Program-made: the position numbers and the translations under genes
DNA from: Candidatus Hermodarchaeota archaeon
GTDB taxonomy: Archaea; Asgardarchaeota; Heimdallarchaeia; Hodarchaeales; Hodarchaeaceae
Direction of reading: 5' to 3'
Assembly (NCBI GenBank): GCA_048886185.1
Contig: JBHLKY010000046.1
Span: 1-11,726 of the forward strand
DNA length: 11,726 nt
The notes under the pieces: model-generated
Database searches by the model: none
Told to the model about the DNA's origin: nothing
What the model saw: the letters and a program-made list of their open reading frames with translations, nothing else
In this document: positions 80 to 11,726 of the stretch, one piece after another
Layout of the letters: each line of letters begins with the position of its first letter
Position numbering within the stretch: the stretch's first letter is position 1

Positions 80-2281
80 GTGTGTGAGGGTTCCTTTTTG
101 AAACAGATGAAATGTCAAATTCTTCTCCTCCTCACTGTGCTACATTTTGTCTTAATCCCAAACACGAGCTTGATGAGGAAGACACAAGGACAAATTATAG
201 ATAGGCAAACAGCTGAAGCACCCAACCATTCCATCCTACAAGATAAATCATCAAATAATTCTCTTTATGAACCGCACTCACCCATAAGTATTACAAGTAA
301 TAGCGATTTTCTCAATCAAGCGGCAGCTGAGAACTGGCCTGGGAACGGGAGCGCGACGAACCCATATATTATCAAGGGACTAACAATAAGCTCCGATGAA
401 GAAATGAGAATTTTGATATATATTGGAGGGACAGATGTACACTTTCGAATAGAGAACTGTCTCTTAAGTCAGGGACGGAATGGAATCCAATTAACAGGGA
501 CAAAGAATGGACAACTCTTTAACAACATAATCACCAATAACAGTGCGGATGGAATTTTCCTGCAAAACGCAGAGTACAATATGCTGTCAAATAATATAGT
601 CACCAACAACCAGGAAGCAGGAATTGCATTGCAAGACTCAGAGGAGAATATCCTGTCAAATAACACCATCACCAAGAATCGTCTTCGAGGAATTGGACTG
701 AGCAACTCAGAGAACAATATCCTGTCAAATAACAAGGTCATCAGCAATGGAGATTCAGGAATAATACTTGGTGGGTCTCAAAATAACTTTCTTTGGGGGA
801 ATATACTCACCAATAATAATCACAATGGCATCCGGGTTACATACTCAGATAACTGTTATGTGTTAAACAATACTGTCACTAAGAACAGTGGTAATGGGGT
901 TAATCTCTACGAATCTTCGACGTGTCAGATGATTGGGAATACACTTGCCAACAATAGTAACTATGGATTGCGTCTAAGTACGAGTGGGAACAACTCAATC
1001 CAATTTAATAACTTCCAAGAAAATACGGTAGAAGATAGAGGGTGGAATAACAGTTTTAAGCAGAATTATTGGAGTGACTGGACAAATCCAGATAGTAACG
1101 GAGATGGGATTGTCGACCAGCCCTATCCAGTCGATGAAGGGAATTTCGACCTCTATCCGTTGGTAGATCCCTTCCCACATGAACCAATTCTATTAGATCA
1201 ACATCTAGTAAACATTTTTATCAATCCTAGCAGAGGTGAGCTTCTGTTCCGCACCGTTACCATCAGATGGGGGATCTTGGATTTAGGCGGCCATGAAATC
1301 TCTTATACTGTCTCCTACTCTGCAAATGGGGGGATGGACTGGACAATAATAACGACTGGGTTAACGACCCCTTATTACATCTGGAAAATCCCGTTAAATC
1401 TGAATGGTACGCAGTATCTAGCGAAAGTTAATGCTAGCTGTATAAACGGTGCATCCTGCGAAATCATTTCAGAAATGTTATCCATCAGTAATACTCATAT
1501 GCAGCCATTCAGAATACTTCTACCCATGGGAGGAGAGATATACTCTAGACGCATCATAATTCAATGGACGTCTGTAGTAGACGTCTTCAATCATGAAGTG
1601 AGCTATACGGTCTCATTTTCAGCAGATAATGGCACTTCATGGAACATCCTTGCATTAAACGTAGTTTCCACAATCCTAAGTTGGGATAGTACAACTGTGA
1701 TAGATGGCTCCCAGTATCTGATACAGGTCAATGCTAGCTGTACCGAAGGAGTAAGGCGTGTACGCAGATCAAATTCAACCTTTACAATTAATAACCCTCA
1801 TAATATTCAACCATTCACAGTTCTTGCCCCCATGGGAGGGGAAACATATTCTGGCATCGTCACAATACAATGGACACAAGCAACAGACCCCTTTGACCAT
1901 GTTGTGTGTTACACAATCTCATATTCCATTGATAATGGCACTCAGCCTTTCTCCTCTCTATCTTGGGACACATTAACATCAAACCTACTCCTTACAACCT
2001 TTGAATGGAACAGTACAACCGTGGTAGATGGTTCCCAGTATCTGATACAGGTTAATGCCAGCTGTGAGGGAGGGATGTGGCGCGTAGCCACCTCAACCAC
2101 TTTTACAATTAAAAATAACCCCCAAAGGTCTAACTATCCCATGACACAGATGTCTACCCCTCTTATGGGCACCAAGGGCTCTCTAAATCTCCAATCTATC
2201 CTCCAAATTCTCAGTCCAATCGTTGTCTTGTCCTTCCTTGTGACCATGGTAATCATAATTCGTCGTCAACAACTAGGATGA
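80..2281 (+). CDS. Secreted, membrane-anchored surface protein: parallel beta-helix (NosD/CASH-like) domain, three Ig-like (Kre9/FN3-type) repeats and a C-terminal TM anchor
   Basis: Hydrophobic signal after a likely true start at ATG 107 (MKCQILLLL). Repeats of N-ILSNN-IT-N---GI-L with a 23-aa period, then NYWSDW...NGDGIVD-PY. Three ~100-108 aa units (P-GGE-YS---IQWT...YT-S-S-DNG..W...YL-QVNASC). A Thr/Ser-rich linker leads to a TM helix (ILSPIVVLSFLVTMVIII) and an RRQQ tail. Confidence 0.9.
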   Translation: MCEGSFLKQMKCQILLLLTVLHFVLIPNTSLMRKTQGQIIDRQTAEAPNHSILQDKSSNNSLYEPHSPISITSNSDFLNQAAAENWPGNGSATNPYIIKGLTISSDEEMRILIYIGGTDVHFRIENCLLSQGRNGIQLTGTKNGQLFNNIITNNSADGIFLQNAEYNMLSNNIVTNNQEAGIALQDSEENILSNNTITKNRLRGIGLSNSENNILSNNKVISNGDSGIILGGSQNNFLWGNILTNNNHNGIRVTYSDNCYVLNNTVTKNSGNGVNLYESSTCQMIGNTLANNSNYGLRLSTSGNNSIQFNNFQENTVEDRGWNNSFKQNYWSDWTNPDSNGDGIVDQPYPVDEGNFDLYPLVDPFPHEPILLDQHLVNIFINPSRGELLFRTVTIRWGILDLGGHEISYTVSYSANGGMDWTIITTGLTTPYYIWKIPLNLNGTQYLAKVNASCINGASCEIISEMLSISNTHMQPFRILLPMGGEIYSRRIIIQWTSVVDVFNHEVSYTVSFSADNGTSWNILALNVVSTILSWDSTTVIDGSQYLIQVNASCTEGVRRVRRSNSTFTINNPHNIQPFTVLAPMGGETYSGIVTIQWTQATDPFDHVVCYTISYSIDNGTQPFSSLSWDTLTSNLLLTTFEWNSTTVVDGSQYLIQVNASCEGGMWRVATSTTFTIKNNPQRSNYPMTQMSTPLMGTKGSLNLQSILQILSPIVVLSFLVTMVIIIRRQQLG
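584..760 (+). repeat. Intragenic 69-nt-period tandem repeat (beta-helix rungs)
   Basis: CTGTCAAATAA occurs at 584, 653 and 722. Confidence 0.85.
1250..2110 (+). repeat. Intragenic triplicated Ig-like domain
   Basis: CAGTATCT anchors at 1412, 1712 and 2036. Segments 1697-1741 and 2021-2065 match at 41 of 45 nt. Outer boundaries are approximate. Confidence 0.85.
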
Positions 2282-2351: not shown

Positions 2352-2460
2352 CATCCCCCGAAAATAGATAAAAAGCGTACAGAGATTGGACCGATACCCC
2401 CTCAGAAAAGCTGACGACTCCTGAAGCGACCTGACGATAGGCCCGCTGAATTTCCGCACA
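2352..2460 (+). repeat. Intergenic repeat R1 (5' and central modules; lacks the GCCCTTGTGCGATTAG module)
   Basis: CATCCCCCGAAAATA..AGCGTACAGAGATTGGACCGA..GACTCCTGAAGCGACCTGACGATAGGCCCGCTGAATTTCCGCAC. Confidence 0.9.
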
Positions 2461-2498
2461 ATCAACTTGATTTTAGGGCAATGACTTTGTGTAAGACA

Positions 2499-2535
2499 TG
2501 ACGAAAGATTTTGTGAAAAATCCAAATTTCCACAC
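2499..2535 (+). repeat. Partial second repeat copy R1b (type II central module)
   Basis: TGACGAAAGATTTTGTGAAAAATCCAAATTTCCACAC resembles R8 TGACGAGAGATTGTGGAAAAATCTTAATTTCCACA. Confidence 0.7.
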
Positions 2536-2565
2536 TCTTAACCTTTTTTAAGTCTCCTTAAAGAA

Positions 2566-2868
2566 TCATTTCCTTGGATTGGCTCTTGAGAGCACCATTC
2601 CGACCATGCCAGCCCCGAAAGCTCCAACTCCAATGAGGAAAATCCCGAAATTGCAGATACCAAATGGAAGGAATGGGGGATTAATCACTGATTGAATACC
2701 AACGGTGAACCACAATAAGGCGAAACCTAGAATCATAAATCGTCCCCACCTATCTCTGATCTCACAACTCAAAGAGCAATAACACCTAGATATAAGAACA
2801 TCATCTCCTAGGATCGTTCTCGTCCGTGTTGTTTGTTTTCCACAATAAAGACATTCAGGAATGGTTAC
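2566..2868 (-). CDS. Small membrane protein with an N-terminal TRASH-like Zn finger and two TM helices; the ORF track call 2566-2772 is N-truncated
   Basis: The reading frame stays open upstream of TTG 2772 as far as TGA 2896-2898. It encodes VTIPECLYCGKQTTRTRTILGDDVLISRCYCSLSCE (C-x2-C-x21-C-S-x2-C), then two hydrophobic helices. No ATG, GTG or TTG precedes the finger in frame, so the start is uncertain and it may be a pseudogene. Confidence 0.65.
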   Translation of the reverse strand, partial: VTIPECLYCGKQTTRTRTILGDDVLISRCYCSLSCEIRDRWGRFMILGFALLWFTVGIQSVINPPFLPFGICNFGIFLIGVGAFGAGMVGMVLSRANPRK

Positions 2869-3034
2869 AACCTTCTCTTTAAATGGGGGATTACGTCAGA
2901 TCAGAATAGATGCAGAAATAAAACATCTAGTGATGACCAGAAACATAGTTTTAAGCTGTCCCATGGGATTGACATCGTGAGGATTGTTTCTTCTCGTCAA
3001 AAAATTTCATCCATGATAAAAACGAACAGGCACA

Positions 3035-3152
3035 AGACCGAAAGCGCTCTATAAGAATCTCCTGACTCCTGAAGCCACTTGACGATAGCTCTTGTTAAAA
3101 ATCTTAATTTCCACACGGTTAGCCCTAGAGCGTACAGATTTCAGAGCGATTA
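3035..3152 (+). repeat. Intergenic repeat R2 (type II-like centre, short linker, nested 5' motif inside the 3' module)
   Basis: AGACCGAAAGCGCTCTATAAGAATCTCCTGACTCCTGAAGCCACTTGACGATAG...AAAAATCTTAATTTCCACACGGTTAGCCCT-AG-AGCGTACAGATTTCAGA-GCGATTA. Confidence 0.9.
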
Positions 3153-3174
3153 ACACATTCTTTATAAATAGGGT

Positions 3175-3918
3175 TTAGTGGTCAGCTAAACCTCTCGACC
3201 GTGTTTTGATTGAATAATAGTGTTCTCGTTCATGCTCAATGAATCGCCGCAAAATCTTATTGGAGGTCCATTGTTCTTTAGGATAGGGCGTAAAAGCTTC
3301 TCGTGTGAATATTCTAGCTCCTTTTTGAATAATCAAATCTTTCAGCACATTAATACATCCTCTTCTTACAAGCTCAAGTCGTTCAAGAATTGGGGTCTCA
3401 TCAAGACGAGGAATAGACATTCCAATATATTTTTCATATAGAATATCTGCCTCTTTTCCTAATCTAGATTTATACCACTCTTCAGCATTACAGATATGTG
3501 TTAATACTTGAATTGTGGTTCGGTTACTATCAGACAACTGTTCAGATAGTTTTTCTAGAGGAATTTCTCCAATGAGTTCTAATAAAGACTGACGAGAAAA
3601 TTCCATTAACTTCAAATAATAAACCAATCTTTCTGACGTAATAGCTTGTTTATCAAATTCAAAAAGAGCTACAGTGCCTCCAGATTCCCCAAGACGAGTG
3701 ATATTAAAGAGTTCTTCTTTTATTATAATTCGTTCATGTGTAGAAATTGAAATCTCCTCATTATAATGCTTTAACCATAAGATATGCTCATTTACTTCTG
3801 ATTCGAGATTTTGTAACAAATCTTCTCTAGAATTAGCCTTTGTAATTGTACCTGGTAAGTCAATTATTCTACCATACCATTTATCAGAAGTTCCCTTTTC
3901 TATAGCTGAATATAACAT
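3175..3918 (-). CDS. HicB-like antitoxin domain fused to a DinB-like (four-helix, His-metal) domain
   Basis: The N-terminus WYGRIIDLPGTITKANSREDLLQNL fits the HicB partial RNase H fold motif. The C-terminus (SRQSLLELI...RTTIQVLTHICNAEEWY...WTSNKILRRFIEHEREH) fits the DinB family pattern. A GAGGT RBS-like site lies upstream of the ATG. Confidence 0.75.
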   Translation of the reverse strand: MLYSAIEKGTSDKWYGRIIDLPGTITKANSREDLLQNLESEVNEHILWLKHYNEEISISTHERIIIKEELFNITRLGESGGTVALFEFDKQAITSERLVYYLKLMEFSRQSLLELIGEIPLEKLSEQLSDSNRTTIQVLTHICNAEEWYKSRLGKEADILYEKYIGMSIPRLDETPILERLELVRRGCINVLKDLIIQKGARIFTREAFTPYPKEQWTSNKILRRFIEHEREHYYSIKTRSRGLADH

Positions 3919-3937
3919 GGTTAAAACCTCTAACCAT
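3917..3937. promoter_or_regulatory. 7-bp inverted repeat spanning the RBS and start codon of the HicB-DinB gene
   Basis: ATGGTTA-AAACCTC-TAACCAT. On the minus strand GAGGT falls in the loop and the AT of ATG in the stem. Confidence 0.4.
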
Positions 3938-3949
3938 TACTCATCTTTG

Positions 3950-3992
3950 TTCCACAATTTTTCCTAAAACAAGCCCTTGTGCGATTAGTGGC
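3950..3992 (+). repeat. Intergenic repeat R3 (3' modules only)
   Basis: TTCCACAATTTTTCCTAAAACAAGCCCTTGTGCGATTAGTGGC. Confidence 0.85.
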
Positions 3993-4003
3993 AGCTGACT
4001 TAA

Positions 4004-4681
4004 TTAGTCGTTATTCAACCTTTTGGTTTTAGATATTCCTATTAATAATTTCCATTCATTCTTAGGTTTCGCGGTAACAATGGTTTTATTATGCCATGCC
4101 TCAGGTCGATAAATCAACTCAAAAGCAAAGTTCAAAAGATCAGATCTCTCGATTTCTGTTGTTTCCAAGAGATTTGTTGGGCCAACACCATGTAGCTTCA
4201 GGTCAGGCTCGGTAAACTCAAATAATAATATTATACTAATATCTGCTGCTTGATGTGCCCCTCTCTTTTGACCTAAAAGTAAAAAGTAGTGATCAGGGAC
4301 AACGGGCTTATCATCTCTTGTTACTCTTTTGAGACCTAAGACCCAAGAATACTCTGTTGCGAATAAGGTGTCAAATAAGTCATGGGTGAAAACAGGATAC
4401 CTCCGAATCGGCAAAATTCCAACATTTTTGGTTTGGATTCCTTTCACATCAAATGTTACCCCTCTAAACGTATGTAAGGGGGATTCAAGTTTCCTAAGCC
4501 TGTCTCTAAGCTCAATAACCTCCTGTTTAAGGCGATCTCTCTCTGATTCGAGTTTATTTCGCTGGGTTTCCAGTAATTGGCGTTCAGTTTCCAGCGCGCG
4601 GATTCGACGTTCCATCGTTCGCGTATAGGAGTCAGCAAAATCATCATGTGAAGCTTTCTTTTCATCCACAGGTTCTGGCAT
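4004..4681 (-). CDS. Hypothetical protein: PAN (proteasome-activating nucleotidase)-like N-terminal coiled coil fused to an unknown domain; no AAA+ motifs
   Basis: YTRTMERRIRALETERQLLETQRNKLESERDRLKQEVIELRDRLRKLESP resembles archaeal PAN N-termini (Y-L-RRIR-LE...L---P). No Walker A or B follows. Confidence 0.75.
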   Translation of the reverse strand: MPEPVDEKKASHDDFADSYTRTMERRIRALETERQLLETQRNKLESERDRLKQEVIELRDRLRKLESPLHTFRGVTFDVKGIQTKNVGILPIRRYPVFTHDLFDTLFATEYSWVLGLKRVTRDDKPVVPDHYFLLLGQKRGAHQAADISIILLFEFTEPDLKLHGVGPTNLLETTEIERSDLLNFAFELIYRPEAWHNKTIVTAKPKNEWKLLIGISKTKRLNND

Positions 4682-4770
4682 ATCAAGTTGTTTCTATAAT
4701 TATTCATACAAATTAATTTTGTTGATTTAATGAAAGATTACTCGAGAGGGGGATAGCATAGATTCTCAAG

Positions 4771-4837
4771 ATCTGACGATAGGTTCACTGAAGGTCCACA
4801 AAATTTTATAAAAATTAGCCCTGGTGCGATTAGTGGC
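4771..4837 (+). repeat. Intergenic repeat R4 (central and 3' modules, long AT linker)
   Basis: ATCTGACGATAGGTTCACTGAAGGTCCACAAAATTTTATAAAAATTAGCCCTGGTGCGATTAGTGGC. Confidence 0.88.
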
Positions 4838-4916
4838 AACATGATTTTCCATCGATGAAAATTTGTCCTGCCCAGTGACAGGTTCGATTTTATTACTGAT
4901 TTAGATTACCATTAGA

Positions 4917-4967
4917 TTGAAACCTTTAAATACCAAGAGAGGTATTCTGAGACCACATTAGGTGGGG
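4917..4967 (+). promoter_or_regulatory. Candidate archaeal BRE/TATA promoter and RBS for 4975-6216
   Basis: TTGAAACC-TTTAAATA (TATA-like at 4925-4932), about 43 nt upstream of the ATG; GGTGGGG at 4961-4967. Confidence 0.45.
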
Positions 4968-4974
4968 CTTTCCA

Positions 4975-6216
4975 ATGAAGGACTTCACAAAGAGTAGGAT
5001 ATATCCATTATTTATTTCTTTAGTGATATTCATAGGAGTTTTTGTCATAGCTAATTTGGTTTGGATACTAGAGATTGCAAATCAAGTATTACTATCAACT
5101 AGGTTACCATATGGTAATATTTTACGAGTAATAAGCATCAATGTCTTTTTCTGGTTAGGATTCACAACTTTCATTACCTTCAAAAACTATAGAGATTCAA
5201 AGATAAAGGAATATTCCGTTTTTACCCTCTTATTATTGGCATTACTCATGCAAGGAGTGATTAATCTCCTCGTGGAGGTTCTCCCTGTGCTAGTCCAAGG
5301 GGGAGATTTGTTTCAAAAATTTAATGCATATACGAGTTTTGATTTTCTCACCCCTTATTCGATTCAGGAAGATCTCAATGGTTTTTCTGATGATCCTTTC
5401 ATTCAAGTGATAAATCTGATTAATCGATACAGCATACTGATCCTAATCAATGATTATTTCATTCATGTGATTTTCGCATTGTATTTTATGAGAGGAGTAT
5501 GGGTAACTTCCCCAAACAAAGTAAAATATACGTTTATTGGATTAGTAATTGGTTCCCTAAGTTTTAAATGTTTAACCTTTTTGATTTATCCAATCTATAG
5601 TAGTTTTACCCCTAATTTCGTTGAAGATTTGATTCTCATACTAGGAATGTTTCTCTTCACACTTCTCCTTATTTATACATACCTTTATCTTGGGGGAAAA
5701 GCATTTCGGTCAATTGATCCCCCAAATCCCACCCCGAGAATTCAGAAAGCAACAGTCTTATGGCGGATAAATCTCCTAGTTCTAATCTTATGGGCCTGCA
5801 TATTGACACTAAATTACACAGGTAAAGTGATTGAATATTCAATATTCGTCTTGAATAGAGACCTATTTCATTTTTCAGACACAGGGTACTTTTTTGGATT
5901 TATCAATGTCTTTGATCTGCATGCGGAATTTCGAGGAGGAATATATGATGTACTATGGTATCTAGGGAATGTGATGTTCATTTTAGTGCCTATTCTTCTA
6001 TTTACTAGTGTTTTGATATTACAGGGAAGTATCGGATTTCTGTACCCAGAAGGCCAGCTCATCTTTGAGAGCCAAATTTTCCGAGTGAAAAAAGCTTATG
6101 ATGGTTTAAGAGCAGACATTAAGTTTCAACAGAGTCAGCTCGTCCACTCCCCGACTTTCAACGCCATAGCAAACTATTTGAAGCAAATTCCAGTGGATTT
6201 CTTCTCTGCTGATTAA
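4975..6216 (+). CDS. Polytopic integral membrane protein of unknown function
   Basis: 413-aa ORF with roughly 9-10 hydrophobic segments by eye. It has an ATG start with an RBS-like site and no recognisable family motif. Confidence 0.85.
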   Translation: MKDFTKSRIYPLFISLVIFIGVFVIANLVWILEIANQVLLSTRLPYGNILRVISINVFFWLGFTTFITFKNYRDSKIKEYSVFTLLLLALLMQGVINLLVEVLPVLVQGGDLFQKFNAYTSFDFLTPYSIQEDLNGFSDDPFIQVINLINRYSILILINDYFIHVIFALYFMRGVWVTSPNKVKYTFIGLVIGSLSFKCLTFLIYPIYSSFTPNFVEDLILILGMFLFTLLLIYTYLYLGGKAFRSIDPPNPTPRIQKATVLWRINLLVLILWACILTLNYTGKVIEYSIFVLNRDLFHFSDTGYFFGFINVFDLHAEFRGGIYDVLWYLGNVMFILVPILLFTSVLILQGSIGFLYPEGQLIFESQIFRVKKAYDGLRADIKFQQSQLVHSPTFNAIANYLKQIPVDFFSAD

Positions 6217-6279
6217 ATAATCCACACATCTCTCAAACAACATCCACTAAAGGTTAAAGAGCTTTCAATCTTTCCCCTT

Positions 6280-6420
6280 CATTCCCCGAAAATAAAACAC
6301 TAGCGTACAGCTATTAGACCGAACCCGCTCTCCGAGAAGCTCCTAACTCCTGAAGCCATCTGACGATAGATACGCTGAATTTCCACAGATTTTTAAGAAA
6401 GTTAGCCCTTATGCGATTAG
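6280..6420 (+). repeat. Intergenic repeat R5 (full length, ~140 bp)
   Basis: CATTCCCCGAAAATA..AGCGTACAGCTATTAGACCGAACCCGCTCTCCGAGAAGCTCCTAACTCCTGAAGCCATCTGACGATAGATACGCTGAATTTCCACAGATTTTTAAGAAAGTTAGCCCTTATGCGATTAG. Confidence 0.93.
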
Positions 6421-6428
6421 AAATACGA

Positions 6429-6740
6429 TCATTGATTTCCATTTCTCATTCCTCCTTTATCAGAGTCAACTACCTCACGGTTAACCGTGGAAGGAGTTTT
6501 AAACCTTCTATTTAGGAATATTTGGACGACTATGCCAACGAAAAAAAGAAGGTATGCAAAGATTAACAAAAAGAAAAGACCCACCATAATTTGGATGGAA
6601 GCCCAAAAGGAATCATCGGGGAGGAGAGAAAAGATCAAAAGATCCCCAAGAAAAATACCAATGGCAAGGAGCATTAAGAAATAGCCAAAAAACTTCTTGA
6701 GAGGATGAGGGGCCATCAGGTAAACAACCATCCTATACAA
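6429..6740 (-). CDS. Small two-TM membrane protein
   Basis: Two clear hydrophobic helices followed by a basic tail (NRRFK). The track start is TTG; ATG 6731 or 6716 is more likely. The stop codon lies 8 nt past the end of R5. Confidence 0.75.
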   Translation of the reverse strand: MYRMVVYLMAPHPLKKFFGYFLMLLAIGIFLGDLLIFSLLPDDSFWASIQIMVGLFFLLIFAYLLFFVGIVVQIFLNRRFKTPSTVNREVVDSDKGGMRNGNQ

Positions 6741-6793
6741 AATAAGGTAGTTTTTTTATTTTATGAATCATAGAAGATATGGAAGTGGAAACT

Positions 6794-6950
6794 TCAAGGA
6801 TTGTTAGAACAGATCACAATGCATGCTGGGAAAAAAGAGGACATTAAGTAGCCAAATACATCACCAATATCAGGCACAATACCCCCAACAAGAGCTTCAA
6901 TATCGACAAAAGTTGTATATACAATAATCACGCCAAAGATTTTATAAAAT
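6794..6950 (-). pseudogene. Possible short hydrophobic ORF or gene remnant abutting R6
   Basis: Stop-free frame KIFGVIIVYTTFVDIEALVGGIVPDIGDVFGYLMSSFFPACIVICSNNP* ending at TGA 6794-6796. GTG 6931 is the first plausible start. Confidence 0.3.
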
Positions 6951-7034
6951 CTCGAAAATACGAAAAAGCGTACAGAAATTAGACCGATCCCGCTCTATGA
7001 GAAGCTAACGACTCCTAAAGCCATCTGATGAGAG
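6951..7034 (+). repeat. Intergenic repeat R6 (5' module only, truncated after CTGATGAGAG)
   Basis: CTCGAAAATACGAAAAAGCGTACAGAAATTAGACCGATCCCGCTCTATGAGAAGCTAACGACTCCTAAAGCCATCTGATGAGAG. Confidence 0.9.
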
Positions 7035-7190
7035 TATTTTCTCAGAAGAACGCATATTTATTTCCTGAAATTCCCAGAGAGGGATCTATTACTCATAAAA
7101 CTCATATGGGTAGGGATCTTGATGGTATTCATCCCACAGGGGAAGGAGATACAAATGTATACTGGGTGAAGACAGTTAAGGGGTTCCACC

Positions 7191-8027
7191 TCATTTGGAG
7201 AGTTTAGAACCACAGATTGAACAAAACTCTTGATTTATAGAAACTTCTCCCCCACAACTATCACAGAGAGACTGAACTCTTGAATTATAAATATCTTGCT
7301 TTGCTTGGGGAAGTAGTGGAGATGAAGGGCCACTAGGAGGTGCTTTATGGGAAGAGGTGAATTGACTTGAGGAGAACTGACCAATTTGATAAAGGGCTTC
7401 AGTCTGTTTCCGAGAACGAAATCTCAGAATAAAGATCGCCACGACGACTCCTCCTACCCCAAGAATAACCGCTACTATGATAATAGGTGACAAGGGCCTG
7501 TTAGTAAAAGTAGTATTATTCACCTCCTCACGAAATTCGTTAAATCCTTGTGTGTCAGTCATAAACACAGAAACTTTATTTGAAGCTACCACGGAAACAC
7601 TAGCAAAAGAGTAACCTCCAAGGAGAATACTTGAAGACAAATTTAACCAAAGATATTCTTGAGAGTCTAATGATAATTCATAAGAAACGGGCACATCAGG
7701 AAAAAGACTGCCCCCTTCTCGAAGAAAAACAGTATATTCAACTGCAGCTGTTGGACGATTGCGATAGTATTCACCTGCTGAATAACCTGTGTTTTCAATA
7801 ACCAGAATATGAAACCCTTCAGCTAGCGTGAGATTAAATGAACATTGTTTGGTCTCAAGAACCAAAGTGCCTTCACAATACCTGAAGGAAGTACCTGGGA
7901 AAATTACAAGAAAATTTGTTAACACCTGGAAGGTTAAAAGGAAAAAAACGAAACCGACACGGGGAGAGTGCATCAAGAAACACATCCAGAAAAACCTGAT
8001 TCTCATAACTAAAAAACTTATCTCCAA
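7191..8027 (-). CDS. Membrane-anchored protein: N-terminal signal/TM, extracellular domain, TM, Pro/Ser linker and C-terminal double-CxxC zinc ribbon
   Basis: VGFVFFLLTFQVL signal; IIIVAVILGVGGVVVAIFIL TM followed by RFRSRK; terminal CDSCGGEVSINQEFCSICGSKL. The track start is TTG; the true start is probably ATG 8006, 7985 or 7973. Confidence 0.85.
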   Translation of the reverse strand: MEISFLVMRIRFFWMCFLMHSPRVGFVFFLLTFQVLTNFLVIFPGTSFRYCEGTLVLETKQCSFNLTLAEGFHILVIENTGYSAGEYYRNRPTAAVEYTVFLREGGSLFPDVPVSYELSLDSQEYLWLNLSSSILLGGYSFASVSVVASNKVSVFMTDTQGFNEFREEVNNTTFTNRPLSPIIIVAVILGVGGVVVAIFILRFRSRKQTEALYQIGQFSSSQFTSSHKAPPSGPSSPLLPQAKQDIYNSRVQSLCDSCGGEVSINQEFCSICGSKLSK

Positions 8028-8308
8028 AGTTGAACAATTAACACGGATTGGCAGAAGGATTGACTTTTATAGGCTGAATAAAATCGTCAAATACGAGATT
8101 ATGTTAAATTACCCTCGCGATATTTGTATTACTGTTAGTCGTTGTCGCTATTATATTGGGATGGTTACAAATACAAACTTCTTTCTCACTCAATATGCCA
8201 CTCAAAATGCAGACAACCTAGTGTTTTGCGATTATGTAAAGAGACAAAAAGAGAATACCATGTGCGGTTCTGGTTAAATCCTCTTTCAATTAGAAATAAT
8301 AGTACAAA

Positions 8309-8419
8309 AGCGGATAAGTACTAAACTGATACCGCTCTAGGAGAAACACCTGACTCCTGAAGCCACCTGACGATAGGTCCGCTGAATTTCCCCACGGGGA
8401 GCCCTTGTGCGATTAGTGG
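8309..8419 (+). repeat. Intergenic repeat R7 (near full length, short linker)
   Basis: AGCGGATAAGTACTAAACTGATACCGCTCTAGGAGAAACACCTGACTCCTGAAGCCACCTGACGATAGGTCCGCTGAATTTCCCCACGGGGAGCCCTTGTGCGATTAGTGG. Confidence 0.93.
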
Positions 8420-8722
8420 TAAGAGGGTTTTACATTGTATATAACCATTCAGACAGAACATAATTCACTAGATGTGTGTGATTTGAAGACTCATCAGAAA
8501 ATAAGAACCCGAATGGATTTCCAATAGAATAACTTAAGAGTTCCGACAAAAAAATCGAAATGAGTGGATTTTTTCCCAAATCCGAGGAAAGTTCACACGA
8601 CACCGGGAGAGATTCTCGAGATAACCTTTTATTTATTCACTCTGCTTCATTCGTGGTGTTGGGTTCATTCATTGAAAAATTTGGAATTTGTGCATTCAGA
8701 ATTAAGAAGATATGAGAAAATA

Positions 8723-8839
8723 ATGACTGAGAAAAAAGAACCTATTCTCTGTTGTATTTTCTGCCATTCAGAGTTTTATTCTGTTAAAGAATCTGAAAAT
8801 CATACATGTGCAAAAAAATCACAGAGGAAAGGGAACTAA
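8723..8839 (+). CDS. 38-aa mini zinc-finger protein (C-x2-C-x3-F-x8-H-x-C)
   Basis: This is the C-terminal part of track ORF 8564-8839, starting at ATG 8723: MTEKKEPILCCIFCHSEFYSVKESENHTCAKKSQRKGN. Confidence 0.5.
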   Translation: MTEKKEPILCCIFCHSEFYSVKESENHTCAKKSQRKGN

Positions 8840-8949
8840 CGATTGACACACTGATTATGGAAAAAACTAAACAACCAGATGTTACCATTAGGTTTCAGTT
8901 GCTTGTTTAAGGAATGATGAGTAAAGGATTTTAACCTAGAGAAAAGGAA

Positions 8950-9933
8950 ATGGCAGGGCTGGGTAATAAATCCATTACAAAAAATAAAATCACGAATCTT
9001 ATAGATCAGGGGAAATTAGAAGAGGCTCTTCGTGAACTAAATAATGTAGAAGAGAAAGAAAAAACCCTCTTAATGTTTAAACTCCTTAGAATTAGCATCT
9101 TGACAAAAACTGGGAGATATCATATTGCATTAAGGGAAGCTCTAGAACTGTATTTTACATACATAAAAAATATGCACCTTGACATCATCCTTTCGTTAGC
9201 TGATATTTATTGGCGAATTGGTAAAATACGGGAGGGTTCTGAGATTATAAAAGAAGGAGAAGGGCTTATACCAGAAACAATTCCAACAGAATCTTTACAT
9301 TTACTGAAAAAGCAGTTTTATCTTTTAAATCTCAAAAGTATTTATGCAAGTTCCCAAGGGAAGACACTCCTTGCAATTCGATGCTTAAAACAAAATGTAA
9401 TCCTGTCGAAGAAAATTAATGATCGAAAAGTCACCGCTGATTTATTTGATAAATTAGGAATCTTTTATTTAGATATTAAGCAGCTGAATCTAGCTTTGCG
9501 ATTTTTTCGATCTAGTTTATTCATCTATCGAGAAATTAACTCCAGACATAACATTAGTTGGTTATTATACAGGATGGGGTGGGCTTATCTAATTGATGAA
9601 ACCAATTTAGATCTTGCACTGTGTTATTTTGATCTGAGTCAAAAAATCTCTACAATCATAGATGATAAATACAGTTTAGCTTCAAGCCTATTCTGGTCAG
9701 CAGACATTTTAAAGACAAGGAACGACATTGTTCAAGCATTAAAACTATTTCAAAGAAGCCTGACTCTTTATGAACAAATCCAAAACATGAAAGGGATGGG
9801 ATTGTGCCTTGAAAAGATTAGTCAGATCTATGAGACGAAAAATAATTCAGAAATGGCTAATCAATATTTCCAGAAGAGTCTAGCCGCATGGAGAATAGCT
9901 TACCAATTATATGGGATTCATATACGGTTATAA
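8950..9933 (+). CDS. Tetratricopeptide-repeat (TPR) protein
   Basis: Repeated helical units (A-L--LG--Y------LAL--F--SL-I--E); ATG with AAGGA upstream. Confidence 0.9.
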   Translation: MAGLGNKSITKNKITNLIDQGKLEEALRELNNVEEKEKTLLMFKLLRISILTKTGRYHIALREALELYFTYIKNMHLDIILSLADIYWRIGKIREGSEIIKEGEGLIPETIPTESLHLLKKQFYLLNLKSIYASSQGKTLLAIRCLKQNVILSKKINDRKVTADLFDKLGIFYLDIKQLNLALRFFRSSLFIYREINSRHNISWLLYRMGWAYLIDETNLDLALCYFDLSQKISTIIDDKYSLASSLFWSADILKTRNDIVQALKLFQRSLTLYEQIQNMKGMGLCLEKISQIYETKNNSEMANQYFQKSLAAWRIAYQLYGIHIRL

Positions 9934-10099
9934 AAAGATACGTGAAACTATATTGGAAACAGATTGATGAGAAATGGGTATATTGAAAAATATAGATAAG
10001 ACAGGTAATACTAATGGATGAGAGGACTACAATCTCATAACATCAGAAATTATGAGTATAAAAGAGGTTGGACAGGATTAGAAATGAGAAAGCAGACAC

Positions 10100-10238
10100 A
10101 CCCGAAGGATCAACAGCGGACAAATTTCAGACCGAATCCGCTCTAGGAGAAACCACTGACGCCATCTGACGAGAGATTGTGGAAAAATCTTAATTTCCAC
10201 AATTTTTGAGAAAAATTGGCCCTGGTGCGATTAGTGAC
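10100..10238 (+). repeat. Intergenic repeat R8 (type II centre, 7-nt deletion, long linker)
   Basis: ACCCGAAGGATCAACAGCGGACAAATTTCAGACCGAATCCGCTCTAGGAGAAACCACTGAC[-TCCTGAA]GCCATCTGACGAGAGATTGTGGAAAAATCTTAATTTCCACAATTTTTGAGAAAAATTGGCCCTGGTGCGATTAGTGAC. It contains perfect inverted repeats ATTGTGGAAA/TTTCCACAAT (10176-10203) and AATTTTT/AAAAATT (10201-10217). Confidence 0.93.
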
Positions 10239-10244
10239 AGGAAT

Positions 10245-10811
10245 TCAAGATTCCTTTTTTAACACTTTTAGAATTAAATCATGAAAAATCCTTTCAATCA
10301 CTTCAGTGTCCATAGGGGTGGCTTCATAATAATCCACCCCCAGCACCGCTGCAGAATCCTGCCCATTAACTGAGGGTAAATCGTCAGAACCGGTAATAAT
10401 TCCCACTAACGCAATTGGAGGGGAAGACAGAGGAAAATGGGCTTTAAACTCGTTGTACCAAAATTCGACCGCATCTAACGAACTTTGGTCATTTTTATCA
10501 AAGATAATTATGGCAGCAGAAGCACCACAATAATAACTCGGTCTTAACTTCTTAAAAAATTGTTTACCAGCAGTATTCACAAGAATGAGTTTTATAGATT
10601 GATTGTTGATAGTAATATTCTTAACATACCTCTCTAGCCCTAATGTGGGTAAATGACTTAAAGTGCGCCTCTTGGTATAGTTCGTAATAAATTGAGTCTG
10701 TAACTGAGTGTGATTGCCAATTATGCAAATTTTTAGGGGATATGGGATTTCATTCATGAAATAGCTCCCTTCTTGTGTCATGAAAGATTCGTCTGTTAAG
10801 AATGTATTCAT
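10245..10811 (-). CDS. Rab/Ras-like small GTPase-fold protein with degenerate nucleotide-binding motifs (pseudo-GTPase)
   Basis: It is collinear with Rab: LKICIIG, PTLG, IKLILVNTAG, SYYCGA--AIIIFD---SL--V--W, IALVG, LG-DYYE. G1 is GNHTQLQT, G3 is NTAGK and G4 is GIITG. The likely start is ATG 10757. Confidence 0.85.
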   Translation of the reverse strand: MNTFLTDESFMTQEGSYFMNEIPYPLKICIIGNHTQLQTQFITNYTKRRTLSHLPTLGLERYVKNITINNQSIKLILVNTAGKQFFKKLRPSYYCGASAAIIIFDKNDQSSLDAVEFWYNEFKAHFPLSSPPIALVGIITGSDDLPSVNGQDSAAVLGVDYYEATPMDTEVIERIFHDLILKVLKKES

Positions 10812-10854
10812 TTGATTACTCCAATTACTCCCGACCTTAGCAAGAGATACTCTT

Positions 10855-11346
10855 CTAGTTGTAAATGGTTATGCGAATTAAGAGAGAAATTTCATACAGA
10901 GAAGCTTCAAAGAAGATATACCAAGGAGAACCTGATTCTTCCTTTCGAGGTAATTCAAGGAGAGAAAACAGCAGAGAAATTTGATCCATTTCCTCCTCAG
11001 TAAGTTCAAATTCTTTTGACTCATTAACCGCAAAAGTGGCTGATTCGTTTAATGCTGAGAGGAGAATAGGAATTGTGGAGGCGTGACTTCGAGTTAAATT
11101 TCCAATCGGGAAGGAATAAGAAGAATCAACTTTAGTAATAATTAAAAAATGTGTAGTTTCTTCTCCACCACGAAAAAAACAACCCGAGGAGAAAAAGACC
11201 AGAAGAAGACTTAAAGGCAAGAAGACCTGTCTACGATTGAGAGGAGTCAGCAGAATTTTCAGCTGCATAGATGCTTCCATCCTGTGAACATATAGTGTAA
11301 TCTGAGAATTCGCATTCTTAAAACTATTCATTTCTGAAAAATACAA
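10855..11346 (-). CDS. Probable lipoprotein or secreted protein
   Basis: From ATG 11268: basic residues (NRR), a hydrophobic stretch and a lipobox-like FSSG-C. The track TTG start at 11346 falls inside the 5' extension of R9, so it is unlikely. Confidence 0.7.
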   Translation of the reverse strand: MYFSEMNSFKNANSQITLYVHRMEASMQLKILLTPLNRRQVFLPLSLLLVFFSSGCFFRGGEETTHFLIITKVDSSYSFPIGNLTRSHASTIPILLSALNESATFAVNESKEFELTEEEMDQISLLFSLLELPRKEESGSPWYIFFEASLYEISLLIRITIYN

Positions 11347-11458
11347 ACACAGCGGACAGACATCAGACCGAAGACGCTCTCCGAGACGCTCCTAACTCCT
11401 GAAACCACCTGACAATAGGTCCGCTGAATTTCCACACGGTTAGCCCTTGTGCGATTAG
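11331..11458 (+). repeat. Intergenic repeat R9 (full length, short linker)
   Basis: TTTCTGAAAAATACAAACACAGCGGACAGACATCAGACCGAAGACGCTCTCCGAGACGCTCCTAACTCCTGAAACCACCTGACAATAGGTCCGCTGAATTTCCACACGGTTAGCCCTTGTGCGATTAG. Confidence 0.93.
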
Positions 11459-11726
11459 TAGCTGTCCGTTTAGGAGCAGATGTTCACTCAATAATCTGGC
11501 TTCTTCACTAAAAGCTACCATGAAGCATGTATTCAGGCCGCTTCTACCTGTTTTCCACACAGTAAATAAGAGAAGGAATTTGTTAAGCAAGTTGAACAAC
11601 ATAGAAGAAGTAAAGGATTAAATCAAAGGAAGGGAAAGGCATTAGTAATTGCTAGACATACTGATCAACAAAAATATTAGGAATTCCAGTCGGCCCTTAA
11701 ATCATTCATTTCACTTAATTAACATT

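Follow-up and report, generated by a model that had tools for sequence, protein, structure and literature searches.

Orphan copies of the 23S rRNA gene end and its trailer punctuate gene arrays in a genus of Hodarchaeales

The stretch of DNA analyzed here (the window) is the entire contig JBHLKY010000046.1, or C46, of 11,726 bp, from assembly GCA_048886185.1 of a Candidatus Hermodarchaeota archaeon belonging to the Hodarchaeales. The source genome, labeled G000, comprises 4.84 Mb in 75 contigs, with a G+C content of 35% and a completeness of 96%. The window holds 10 intergenic copies of one repeat of ~135 nt, six of them near full length and four partial, all running in the same direction and separating units of one to three genes (Table 1). 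As first described, the repeat reads on the plus strand; the sense that turned out to matter, that of ribosomal RNA (rRNA), is the minus strand of the window, and the copies are called tails below. They were located by repeat finding, MAFFT alignment, and an iterated nhmmer profile accepting E values up to 1e-3, in which the window copies scored between 1e-10 and 1e-31. An earlier reading of the sequence (the original prediction) had proposed that ten such loci, intergenic and confined to one strand, delimit an integron-like array of gene cassettes. All ten were recovered in the same places by these three approaches, and the proposed consensus was essentially right; the best-kept blocks across 78 copies from six genomes are CAGACATCAGACCGA, GAAGCT, GACTCCTKAAGCCA.CTGACGATAG, AATTTCCAC, and TTAGCCCTTGT. 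It had also been noticed that minus-strand genes stop just past a repeat; the stops at 2566, 3175, 4004, 6429, and 10245 lie 22, 19, 7, 3, and 5 nt past a repeat end, gaps that differ by a few nucleotides from the earlier ones only because the repeat end is set differently. The only overlap with a gene involves a TTG-started open reading frame (ORF) at 10855-11346, which covers ~20 nt of one copy.

Throughout the G000 genome, 25 copies were found with nhmmer, and these occupy three places only, namely the window (8 copies), C3:220215-253395 (15 copies), and C7:118041-119404 (2 copies), with one orientation within each contig; BLAST added a 40-nt scrap on C71. The repeat family lies far beyond chance, and its copies form co-oriented clusters rather than being dispersed, which was the question that the original prediction had wished to put to the genome. 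The clustering refutes the alternative offered at the time, a mobile repeat of the kind of a miniature inverted-repeat transposable element (MITE) or a repetitive extragenic palindrome (REP) that inserts at gene ends. The copies do resemble such an element in being short, intergenic, and adjacent to stop codons, but they keep to three places in 4.84 Mb, are always co-oriented, have no terminal inverted repeats or hairpin, reside in a genome without HUH or TnpB-type genes, and are homologous to the end of a 23S rRNA gene; we give this explanation next to no credence.

The reverse complement of the repeat is almost certainly the last ~25 nt of the 23S rRNA gene followed by ~110 nt of its 3' trailer. 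The comparison set consisted of 21 other species-level genomes of the genus (labeled G001 etc.) and 19 genomes from other genera of the class; the order contributes only two genomes beyond the genus, both without an assembled 23S gene. In G008, the alignment of C8:27745-28068 (minus strand) with the Rfam model LSU_rRNA_archaea, i.e., the archaeal large-subunit (LSU) rRNA, reaches the end of the model. The final ~25 nt of this match (CCACTAATCGCACAAGAGCT...) are the reverse complement of the 3' box of the repeat, and the next ~110 nt are the remainder of the repeat. At the right end of the same contig, a genuine 23S gene (53937-54756, minus strand; model positions 2545-2987), cut by the contig end, runs directly into an array of ~29 tails over 51 kb, while contig C9 opens with the 3' end of the 16S gene, after which comes the other half of the 23S gene (positions 16-1422). 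On contig C44 of G005, the 3' half of a genuine 23S gene (405-2075) is followed by its own tail, a 3.6-kb unit, and an orphan tail that is 86% identical over 184 nt. Contiguity of an array with a genuine 23S gene is thus seen in G008 and G005; the G000 assembly contains no 23S sequence, and its tails retain only the last ~25 to 30 nt of the gene. The window copies are mutually 57 to 81% identical (median, 69%) and 62 to 81% identical to the genuine tail of G008, a spread similar to the 70% identity between the genuine tails of two species. The rRNA identity of the repeat ties the array to the rRNA operon. The original prediction had treated the repeat as an anonymous site; it was right in holding that the site is not attC, the recombination site of integron cassettes, and missed the identity with the 23S 3' end and trailer.

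In G008, the leader and the trailer of the 23S rRNA precursor are complementary (ddG of −28.7 kcal/mol, versus −13.1 ± 4.5 kcal/mol for shuffled sequences), and their pairing passes through the core boxes of the repeat (…CCTTAAGC…GACG…ATAGG.CCGC). The repeat therefore includes the 3' (trailer) strand of the leader-trailer processing helix, and its composition of trailer strand plus gene end explains why strong sequence conservation is accompanied by no intrinsic fold. The core boxes correspond to the trailer strand of the archaeal precursor-rRNA helix, with the difference that here dozens of orphan trailer strands occur without an attached 23S gene. Three other readings of the repeat were rejected. 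A C/D-box small RNA (sRNA) built on the CUGA and CUGACGA motifs would need longer spacers, and the insert variants lack one of its boxes; a promoter plus sRNA at the CCGAAAATA box is superseded by the rRNA-trailer identity, and no RNA run with the repeat was listed among public runs; a protein-coding frame read from the opposite strand is contradicted by indels that do not come in threes and by stops in other copies. A search of the window against Rfam at E ≤ 1 returned only a chance-level match to RgsA (19 bits, versus a cut-off of 88), and no tRNAs were detected in the window.

The array is not an integron, since it fails on both defining components, attC and IntI. By RNAalifold, the plus strand has no consensus structure and the minus strand only a local stem of 5 pairs. 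As single-stranded DNA, three full copies gave folding z values of −0.6, −2.2, +0.6, 0.0, −1.0, and −1.2, i.e., mostly between −1.2 and +0.6 and similar to shuffled sequence, and only the copy bearing an AT-rich insert folds into a local hairpin. A pair of boxes of the form RYYYAAC...GTTRRRY, corresponding to the R″/R′ pair of attC sites, occurs inside none of the copies, as the original prediction had stated. The best G000 match to the IntI model TIGR02249 reached 97 bits against a cut-off of 265. By definition, clusters of attC sites lacking an integrase (CALINs) have no IntI, so the absence of IntI alone does not exclude a CALIN. None of the three tyrosine recombinases (PF00589) encoded in G000 lies near the arrays; one is XerA-like (C4:42986-43873), and the second (C27:43050-43943) sits among ordinary genes; no serine recombinase (PF00239), HUH Y1 transposase (PF01797), or TnpB (PF07282) was found in this genome. 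The recombinase that had been expected at an array end did not appear: no tyrosine recombinase lies on any of the listed array contigs of the 22 genomes of the genus, and Pfam searches of the array flanks and the 23S-proximal units of G005 and G008 returned no recombinase.

What the array shares with an integron or CALIN is that co-oriented sites separate small, unrelated cassettes that differ between relatives, including toxin-antitoxin pairs (MNT-HEPN and PIN); the ORFs, however, are not mostly in one orientation with a site directly downstream. In the window, seven genes lie on the minus strand and three to four on the plus strand, and the orientation of the tails tracks the array, not the adjoining genes. 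Integrons with canonical attC folds and IntI have been described in archaea, including Asgard metagenome-assembled genomes (MAGs) (PMC9668308, Ghaly et al. 2022). Given the lack of a fold and box pair, genes on both strands, and homology of the site to an rRNA flank, a canonical integron or CALIN is exceedingly improbable here. Of the integron-like interpretation, the co-oriented arrays, the unrelated units, the turnover between species, and the non-attC nature of the site have stood, whereas the recombinase at the array end and the layout of one gene plus one downstream folded site have not, the repeat being unfolded and the units containing one to three genes on both strands.

Within the genus, a sequence-only covariance model of the repeat matched 19 of the 21 other genomes, always in co-oriented clusters; in the 19 genomes from other genera it had no match. 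A comparison of related genomes, which had been called for, found the units almost wholly different: the arrays of G000, G008, G010, and G017 have very few genes in common, and the shared DNA blocks of 0.3 to 2.9 kb lie next to different neighbors, mostly ending 0 to 80 nt from a tail. Some of these blocks are 91 to 97% identical, compared with ~80 to 90% for orthologous flanks. Clustering and unit turnover are thus seen between species of one genus. The "single-contig" genome of G010 is a scaffold in which gaps of 100 N directly flank tail arrays, one of them abutting the 23S end of a tail (in G010:C1, L018:16539-16638; L020:4279-4378, 10603-10702, and 15860-15959; L021:8589-8688 and 13723-13822). 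No 23S gene was found in G010, whose rRNA operon has probably not been assembled and whose array order is unreliable; on account of the gaps beside the arrays, G010 does not allow a claim of three separate arrays. For the window itself, reads from three runs of one study gave the same order. In a fourth run, from another study, several cassette genes recur at 95 to 99% identity on contigs of only 250 to 400 nt, and the apparent joints there are tail-to-tail cross-matches with short sides that are uninformative on strain-level turnover. Window positions 8287-11726 recur at 99.97% identity on a 4,342-nt NCBI contig of another assembly, which extends ~900 nt beyond the right end of the window (its positions 1-902), where it carries a methyltransferase-like gene and no 23S sequence; this extension is missing from the G000 assembly. 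Among viral contigs, the core repeat pattern had no match and a looser pattern three, one of which, at 13 bits, is a mere resemblance over ~25 nt.

The boundaries of the tails are sharp on both sides. Nearly all orphans start at one shared 23S position, and the distal boundary is defined to within a few nucleotides. About half of the orphans carry CT[C/G]CCACTAATCGC at the 23S-side joint, where the genuine gene of G008 has GCGGCCACTAATCGC; the CT[C/G] motif is a derived feature, shared by orphans of four species. A second, "long" class of tails, present in seven species, begins at LSU model position 2721 and carries 23S model positions 2721-2987. Long tails were found at G008:C8:27759-28068 and 46367-46669 as well as in G001, G002, G003, G011, G012, and G013; there are none in G000. 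They contain an intact-looking 3' module of the 23S rRNA including the sarcin-ricin loop, which could be mistaken for part of a split rRNA gene.

Two tails on C3 have themselves received DNA. A two-gene PIN toxin-antitoxin unit (C3:244192-245236) and a 267-bp derivative with an internal deletion (C3:253074-253340) each lie within a tail, at the same point after ACTCCTGAAG and with the right junction ACTCCTAGAG in both; they are the only two copies in the genome. Their interiors are 95 to 97% identical, whereas the surrounding tail halves are only ~70 to 80% identical, which fits entry at a preferred point in the tail. A fixed crossover at ACTCCTGAAG for the tails in general was considered and rejected: the truncation points of 83 copies are scattered, with a slight excess only at profile positions 71-75 and 101-110, and the breakpoints of shared units lie elsewhere.

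That the tails serve as joints between cassettes is, in our judgment, highly probable. The account of the arrays that we favor, with somewhat better than even confidence, is an accessory island anchored to the rRNA operon, with the tails as att-like joints at which cassettes are gained and shuffled, probably in a site-specific manner and by a factor acting in trans. Specifically, the island would lie directly behind the 23S gene, with dozens of tails in the same direction parting it into units of one to three genes; DNA would be inserted at or between tails, each event adding one tail, and units would be lost or reshuffled through tail-to-tail recombination. In outcome this would resemble an integron, as a platform for capturing and shuffling genes, with another site and other machinery. 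The reaction would be carried out by a factor encoded elsewhere, which may be the XerA-like recombinase of the host, the second chromosomal tyrosine recombinase, or another. Site-specific recombination is favored by the sharp and shared joints and by the occurrence of two discrete tail classes in many species; taken as a separate question, site-specific and homologous recombination appear to us evenly balanced.

The main and serious rival, which we regard as rather unlikely, describes the tails as passive relics of one or a few ancient duplications of the 23S tail, followed by homologous recombination and gene conversion, including with DNA from tail-bearing relatives, and involves no dedicated site-specific machinery. 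A good part of the evidence that weighs against our preferred account speaks for this one. No recombinase of the searched families was found beside or within the arrays examined, and none is linked to an array across the 22 genomes. The homology breakpoints of shared units lie around the tails and not at one fixed nucleotide within them. Along the array of G008, identity to the genuine tail does not vary with distance from the 23S gene (rho, 0.16; p, 0.5), and 96% identity is still seen in one copy at a distance of 29 kb, which suggests conversion; without an age gradient, simple accretion at the gene-proximal tail is unsupported. The PIN toxin-antitoxin insertion, which has high-identity shoulders of ~25 nt, could likewise have spread by gene conversion between tails. 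Two further points weigh against the preferred account: the two tails of C7 lie inside an ordinary contig, away from any array end, and, the 23S gene of G000 being unassembled, adjacency of array and 23S gene is shown in the relatives G008 and G005 only. The scattered truncation points also speak against a simple model. A precedent for homologous exchange beside rRNA genes has been proposed in bacteria: hypervariable region 2 (HVR2) of SAR11 is situated between the genes for 23S and 5S rRNA, which are suggested to act as the flanks for homologous recombination (PMC2217521, 2007). Against passive relics stands the fact that tails within one genome, at the identities given above over ~130 nt, are a poor substrate for homologous recombination. 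The sharp 23S-side joint, the CT[C/G] motif shared by about half of the orphans and absent from the genuine gene, and the fixed starts of two discrete tail classes in many species also argue against it, and the entry of unrelated singleton genes between tails is left unexplained.

A protein of ~510 aa, belonging to a family restricted to the genus, accompanies the arrays. In G000 it is encoded at C3:204389-205918, each of the 22 genomes of the genus has 1 to 10 paralogues, and the genes are placed either inside arrays or upstream of them. Where gene and tails share a contig, they point the same way in 23 of 24 cases, which are not independent of one another owing to kinship and tandem paralogues. 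No Pfam or NCBIfam match was obtained, and a large protein collection yielded only 29 relatives, of which every named one comes from Hodarchaeales-type MAGs. The AlphaFold2 model, with a predicted local distance difference test (pLDDT) value of 92, features a helical N-terminal domain followed by two modules that each combine a helix-turn-helix (HTH) with an α/β part. Its best match in the PDB, a weak one, is the siroheme decarboxylase NirDL, a tandem AsnC-like protein (Foldseek E value, 1e-4; template modeling [TM] scores, 0.30/0.45; root mean square deviation, 14 Å), and its structural neighbors in the Atlas carry HTH_24 or HTH_AsnC domains. The N-terminal domain alone is a generic helical bundle, with a best Z score of 7.9 and no Foldseek match, and the invariant residues of the family correspond to no known catalytic set, nor is there a catalytic fold. 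On the strength of the model, the family is probably Lrp/AsnC-like, with a tandem HTH-RAM architecture, and the protein may bind the tails as an architectural or site-binding partner; equally, it may be no more than a long-standing neighbor of the rRNA operon, today marking the island's far end.

The presence of this family beside and inside the arrays, with its shared orientation, is one of the observations favoring the view that the tails persist because they have a function themselves, the cassette-like appearance being incidental. They could be terminators or insulators against rRNA read-through, platforms for the Lrp/AsnC-like protein, small RNAs, or decoys for the precursor-rRNA leader. 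Conservation across the 78 copies is block-wise (95 to 99% in some blocks, 35 to 45% in others), and T-tracts are found at the distal tail end on the rRNA-sense strand. However, many copies are truncated at varied points, the orientation of the tails follows the array and not the adjoining genes, and the block conservation could be inherited from genuine tails constrained by rRNA processing; we consider a function of this kind distinctly unlikely. A further, tentative proposal, for which we see a limited chance, goes beyond the preferred account of cassette joints: a dedicated gene-capture system using the strand of the 23S tail and processing helix as its site. Its recombinase would either fit none of the known layouts (integron, tyrosine, serine, or HUH) or be a host enzyme that the ~510-aa protein recruits.

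The cargo of the arrays is mixed, as the original prediction had held in calling the genes functionally unrelated. For most cassette genes, no paralogue exists elsewhere in the genome, and Pfam and paralogue searches characterize them mostly as singletons (Table 1). In addition to the toxin-antitoxin pairs, the arrays encode DinB, TPR, Ras-like GTPase, NosD/β-helix, SnoaL, flavin reductase, and nucleoside hydrolase proteins and many proteins of no family. Ras-family small GTPases of 165 to 200 aa recur in the arrays of G000, G008, G010, and G017, and G008:C8 alone carries at least six, with mutual divergence of 30 to 67%. The 733-aa NosD gene of the window contains three tandem 69-nt repeats and repeats of 300/324 nt (window 521-727 and 1404-2096), which are ordinary coding repeats of the β-helix and C-terminal domains; as a possible means of joining contigs, paralogy between this 733-aa protein and a 735-aa protein on C3 was looked for and not found. 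At the distal edge of the C3 array, an RNase H/RVT_3-type gene (C3:219486-219935) sits after a weak tail remnant (218063) and before the array's first clear tail (220216). The two tails on C7:118041-119404 flank genes for proteins of 90 and 184 aa in the middle of a 227-kb contig, just after a CitMHS transporter gene, so that tail-bounded units exist away from the main island too; the 184-aa gene is 89% identical to a gene ~5 kb from tails of G010, across a scaffold gap.

Table 1. Tails and genes in the window (positions in nucleotides; strand of tails given in the rRNA sense)
Feature	Position	Strand	Basis
NosD/right-handed β-helix surface-type protein, 733 aa, far left contig end; 57% identical homologue inside G010 array	80..2281	+	Pfam
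Orphan 23S tail, without 23S-end box	2352..2482	-	nhmmer E 3.5e-23; alignment
Partial tail, 23S-proximal third only, 14 nt from preceding copy	2496..2543	-	Repeat finding; sequence
Cassette gene, 68 aa, no family	2566..2772	-	ORF list, Pfam
Orphan 23S tail, variant with short AT-rich insert	3005..3155	-	nhmmer E 4.7e-25; 85 bits
Cassette gene, DinB_2 family, 247 aa	3175..3918	-	Pfam
Tail remnant: 23S 3'-end box plus ~20 nt of trailer	3950..3996	-	Repeat finding; BLAST 89% over 47 nt versus G008 23S end plus trailer
Cassette gene, coiled-coil protein, 225 aa	4004..4681	-	Pfam
Partial tail, 23S-proximal two-thirds, between divergent genes	4736..4838	-	nhmmer E 5.7e-11
Cassette gene, 413 aa, no family, no genomic paralogue	4975..6216	+	Pfam; paralogue search
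Full orphan 23S tail, 74% identical to genuine G008 tail	6278..6425	-	nhmmer E 1.5e-31
Cassette gene, 103 aa, no family	6429..6740	-	Pfam
Orphan tail, without 23S-end box	6945..7074	-	nhmmer E 1.8e-19
Cassette gene, 278 aa, C-terminal zinc ribbon (weak, below Pfam cut-offs)	7191..8027	-	Pfam
Full orphan 23S tail	8285..8421	-	nhmmer E 3.8e-30
Two-gene unit: 91-aa ORF plus TPR protein (327 aa)	8564..9933	+	
Orphan 23S tail, variant with local GTGGAAA/TTTCCAC hairpin insert	10095..10239	-	nhmmer E 2.1e-20; fold
Two-gene unit: Ras-family small GTPase (188 aa) plus 163-aa ORF, the ORF 62% identical to a tail-flanked G010 gene	10245..11346	-	
Full orphan 23S tail, best copy, 79% identical to genuine G008 tail	11327..11463	-	nhmmer E 1.1e-31

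No description of cassettes bounded by rRNA tails was found in the literature, and three known systems invite comparison. At the 3' ends of tRNA and transfer-messenger RNA (tmRNA) genes, tandem islands and derivatives without an integrase are known from analyses of the Islander/TIGER type. The arrays resemble them in that direct repeats copy the 3' part of a structural RNA gene, that in G008 and G005 the array starts at the genuine gene, that the units are accessory or foreign, and that the repeat has a sharp boundary inside the gene. They differ in their target, the 23S 3' end plus trailer, in the tiny size of the units (one to three genes, with up to ~30 units per genome), in the absence of an integrase from the units examined or by an att site, and in the lack of a proximal-to-distal order of age. 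Insertion of islands at the 3' ends of tRNA and tmRNA genes goes back to Reiter et al. 1989, as cited in PMC2217521. With sedentary chromosomal integrons and CALINs, the arrays share long series of co-oriented, genome-specific sites of ~130 nt, small cassettes mostly of unassigned function, toxin-antitoxin pairs, and content that turns over between species; unlike them, they have no attC hairpin, no R/L boxes, and no IntI, carry genes on both strands, and use an rRNA-flank site. SAR11 HVR2 is similar as a large, strain-variable accessory island next to the sole 23S gene with rRNA genes as proposed recombination flanks, but it is a bacterial single block exchanged by homologous recombination, and internal rRNA tails are not described in PMC2217521. 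To the picture of the locus the present analysis adds the genus-wide census, the joint motif, the toxin-antitoxin insertion within tails, the absence of an age gradient, and the linked protein family.

In practical terms, these arrays cause MAG assemblies to break off at the rRNA operon, and a 23S piece belonging to an orphan may be taken for a split rRNA gene. The wider meaning depends on the function of the tails. If recombination does take place at the tails as its true sites, the Hodarchaeales, of all archaea the group nearest to eukaryotes, would possess a cassette platform that had an origin separate from that of integrons and is anchored to the rRNA operon, which would explain how accessory genes are gained and swapped in large Asgard genomes with very few recognizable mobile-element enzymes; the tails would then also offer a concrete, testable site at which to find a new recombination activity. 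Should there be a dedicated capture system, the flank of the rRNA genes would be the main entry port of the genome for accessory genes.

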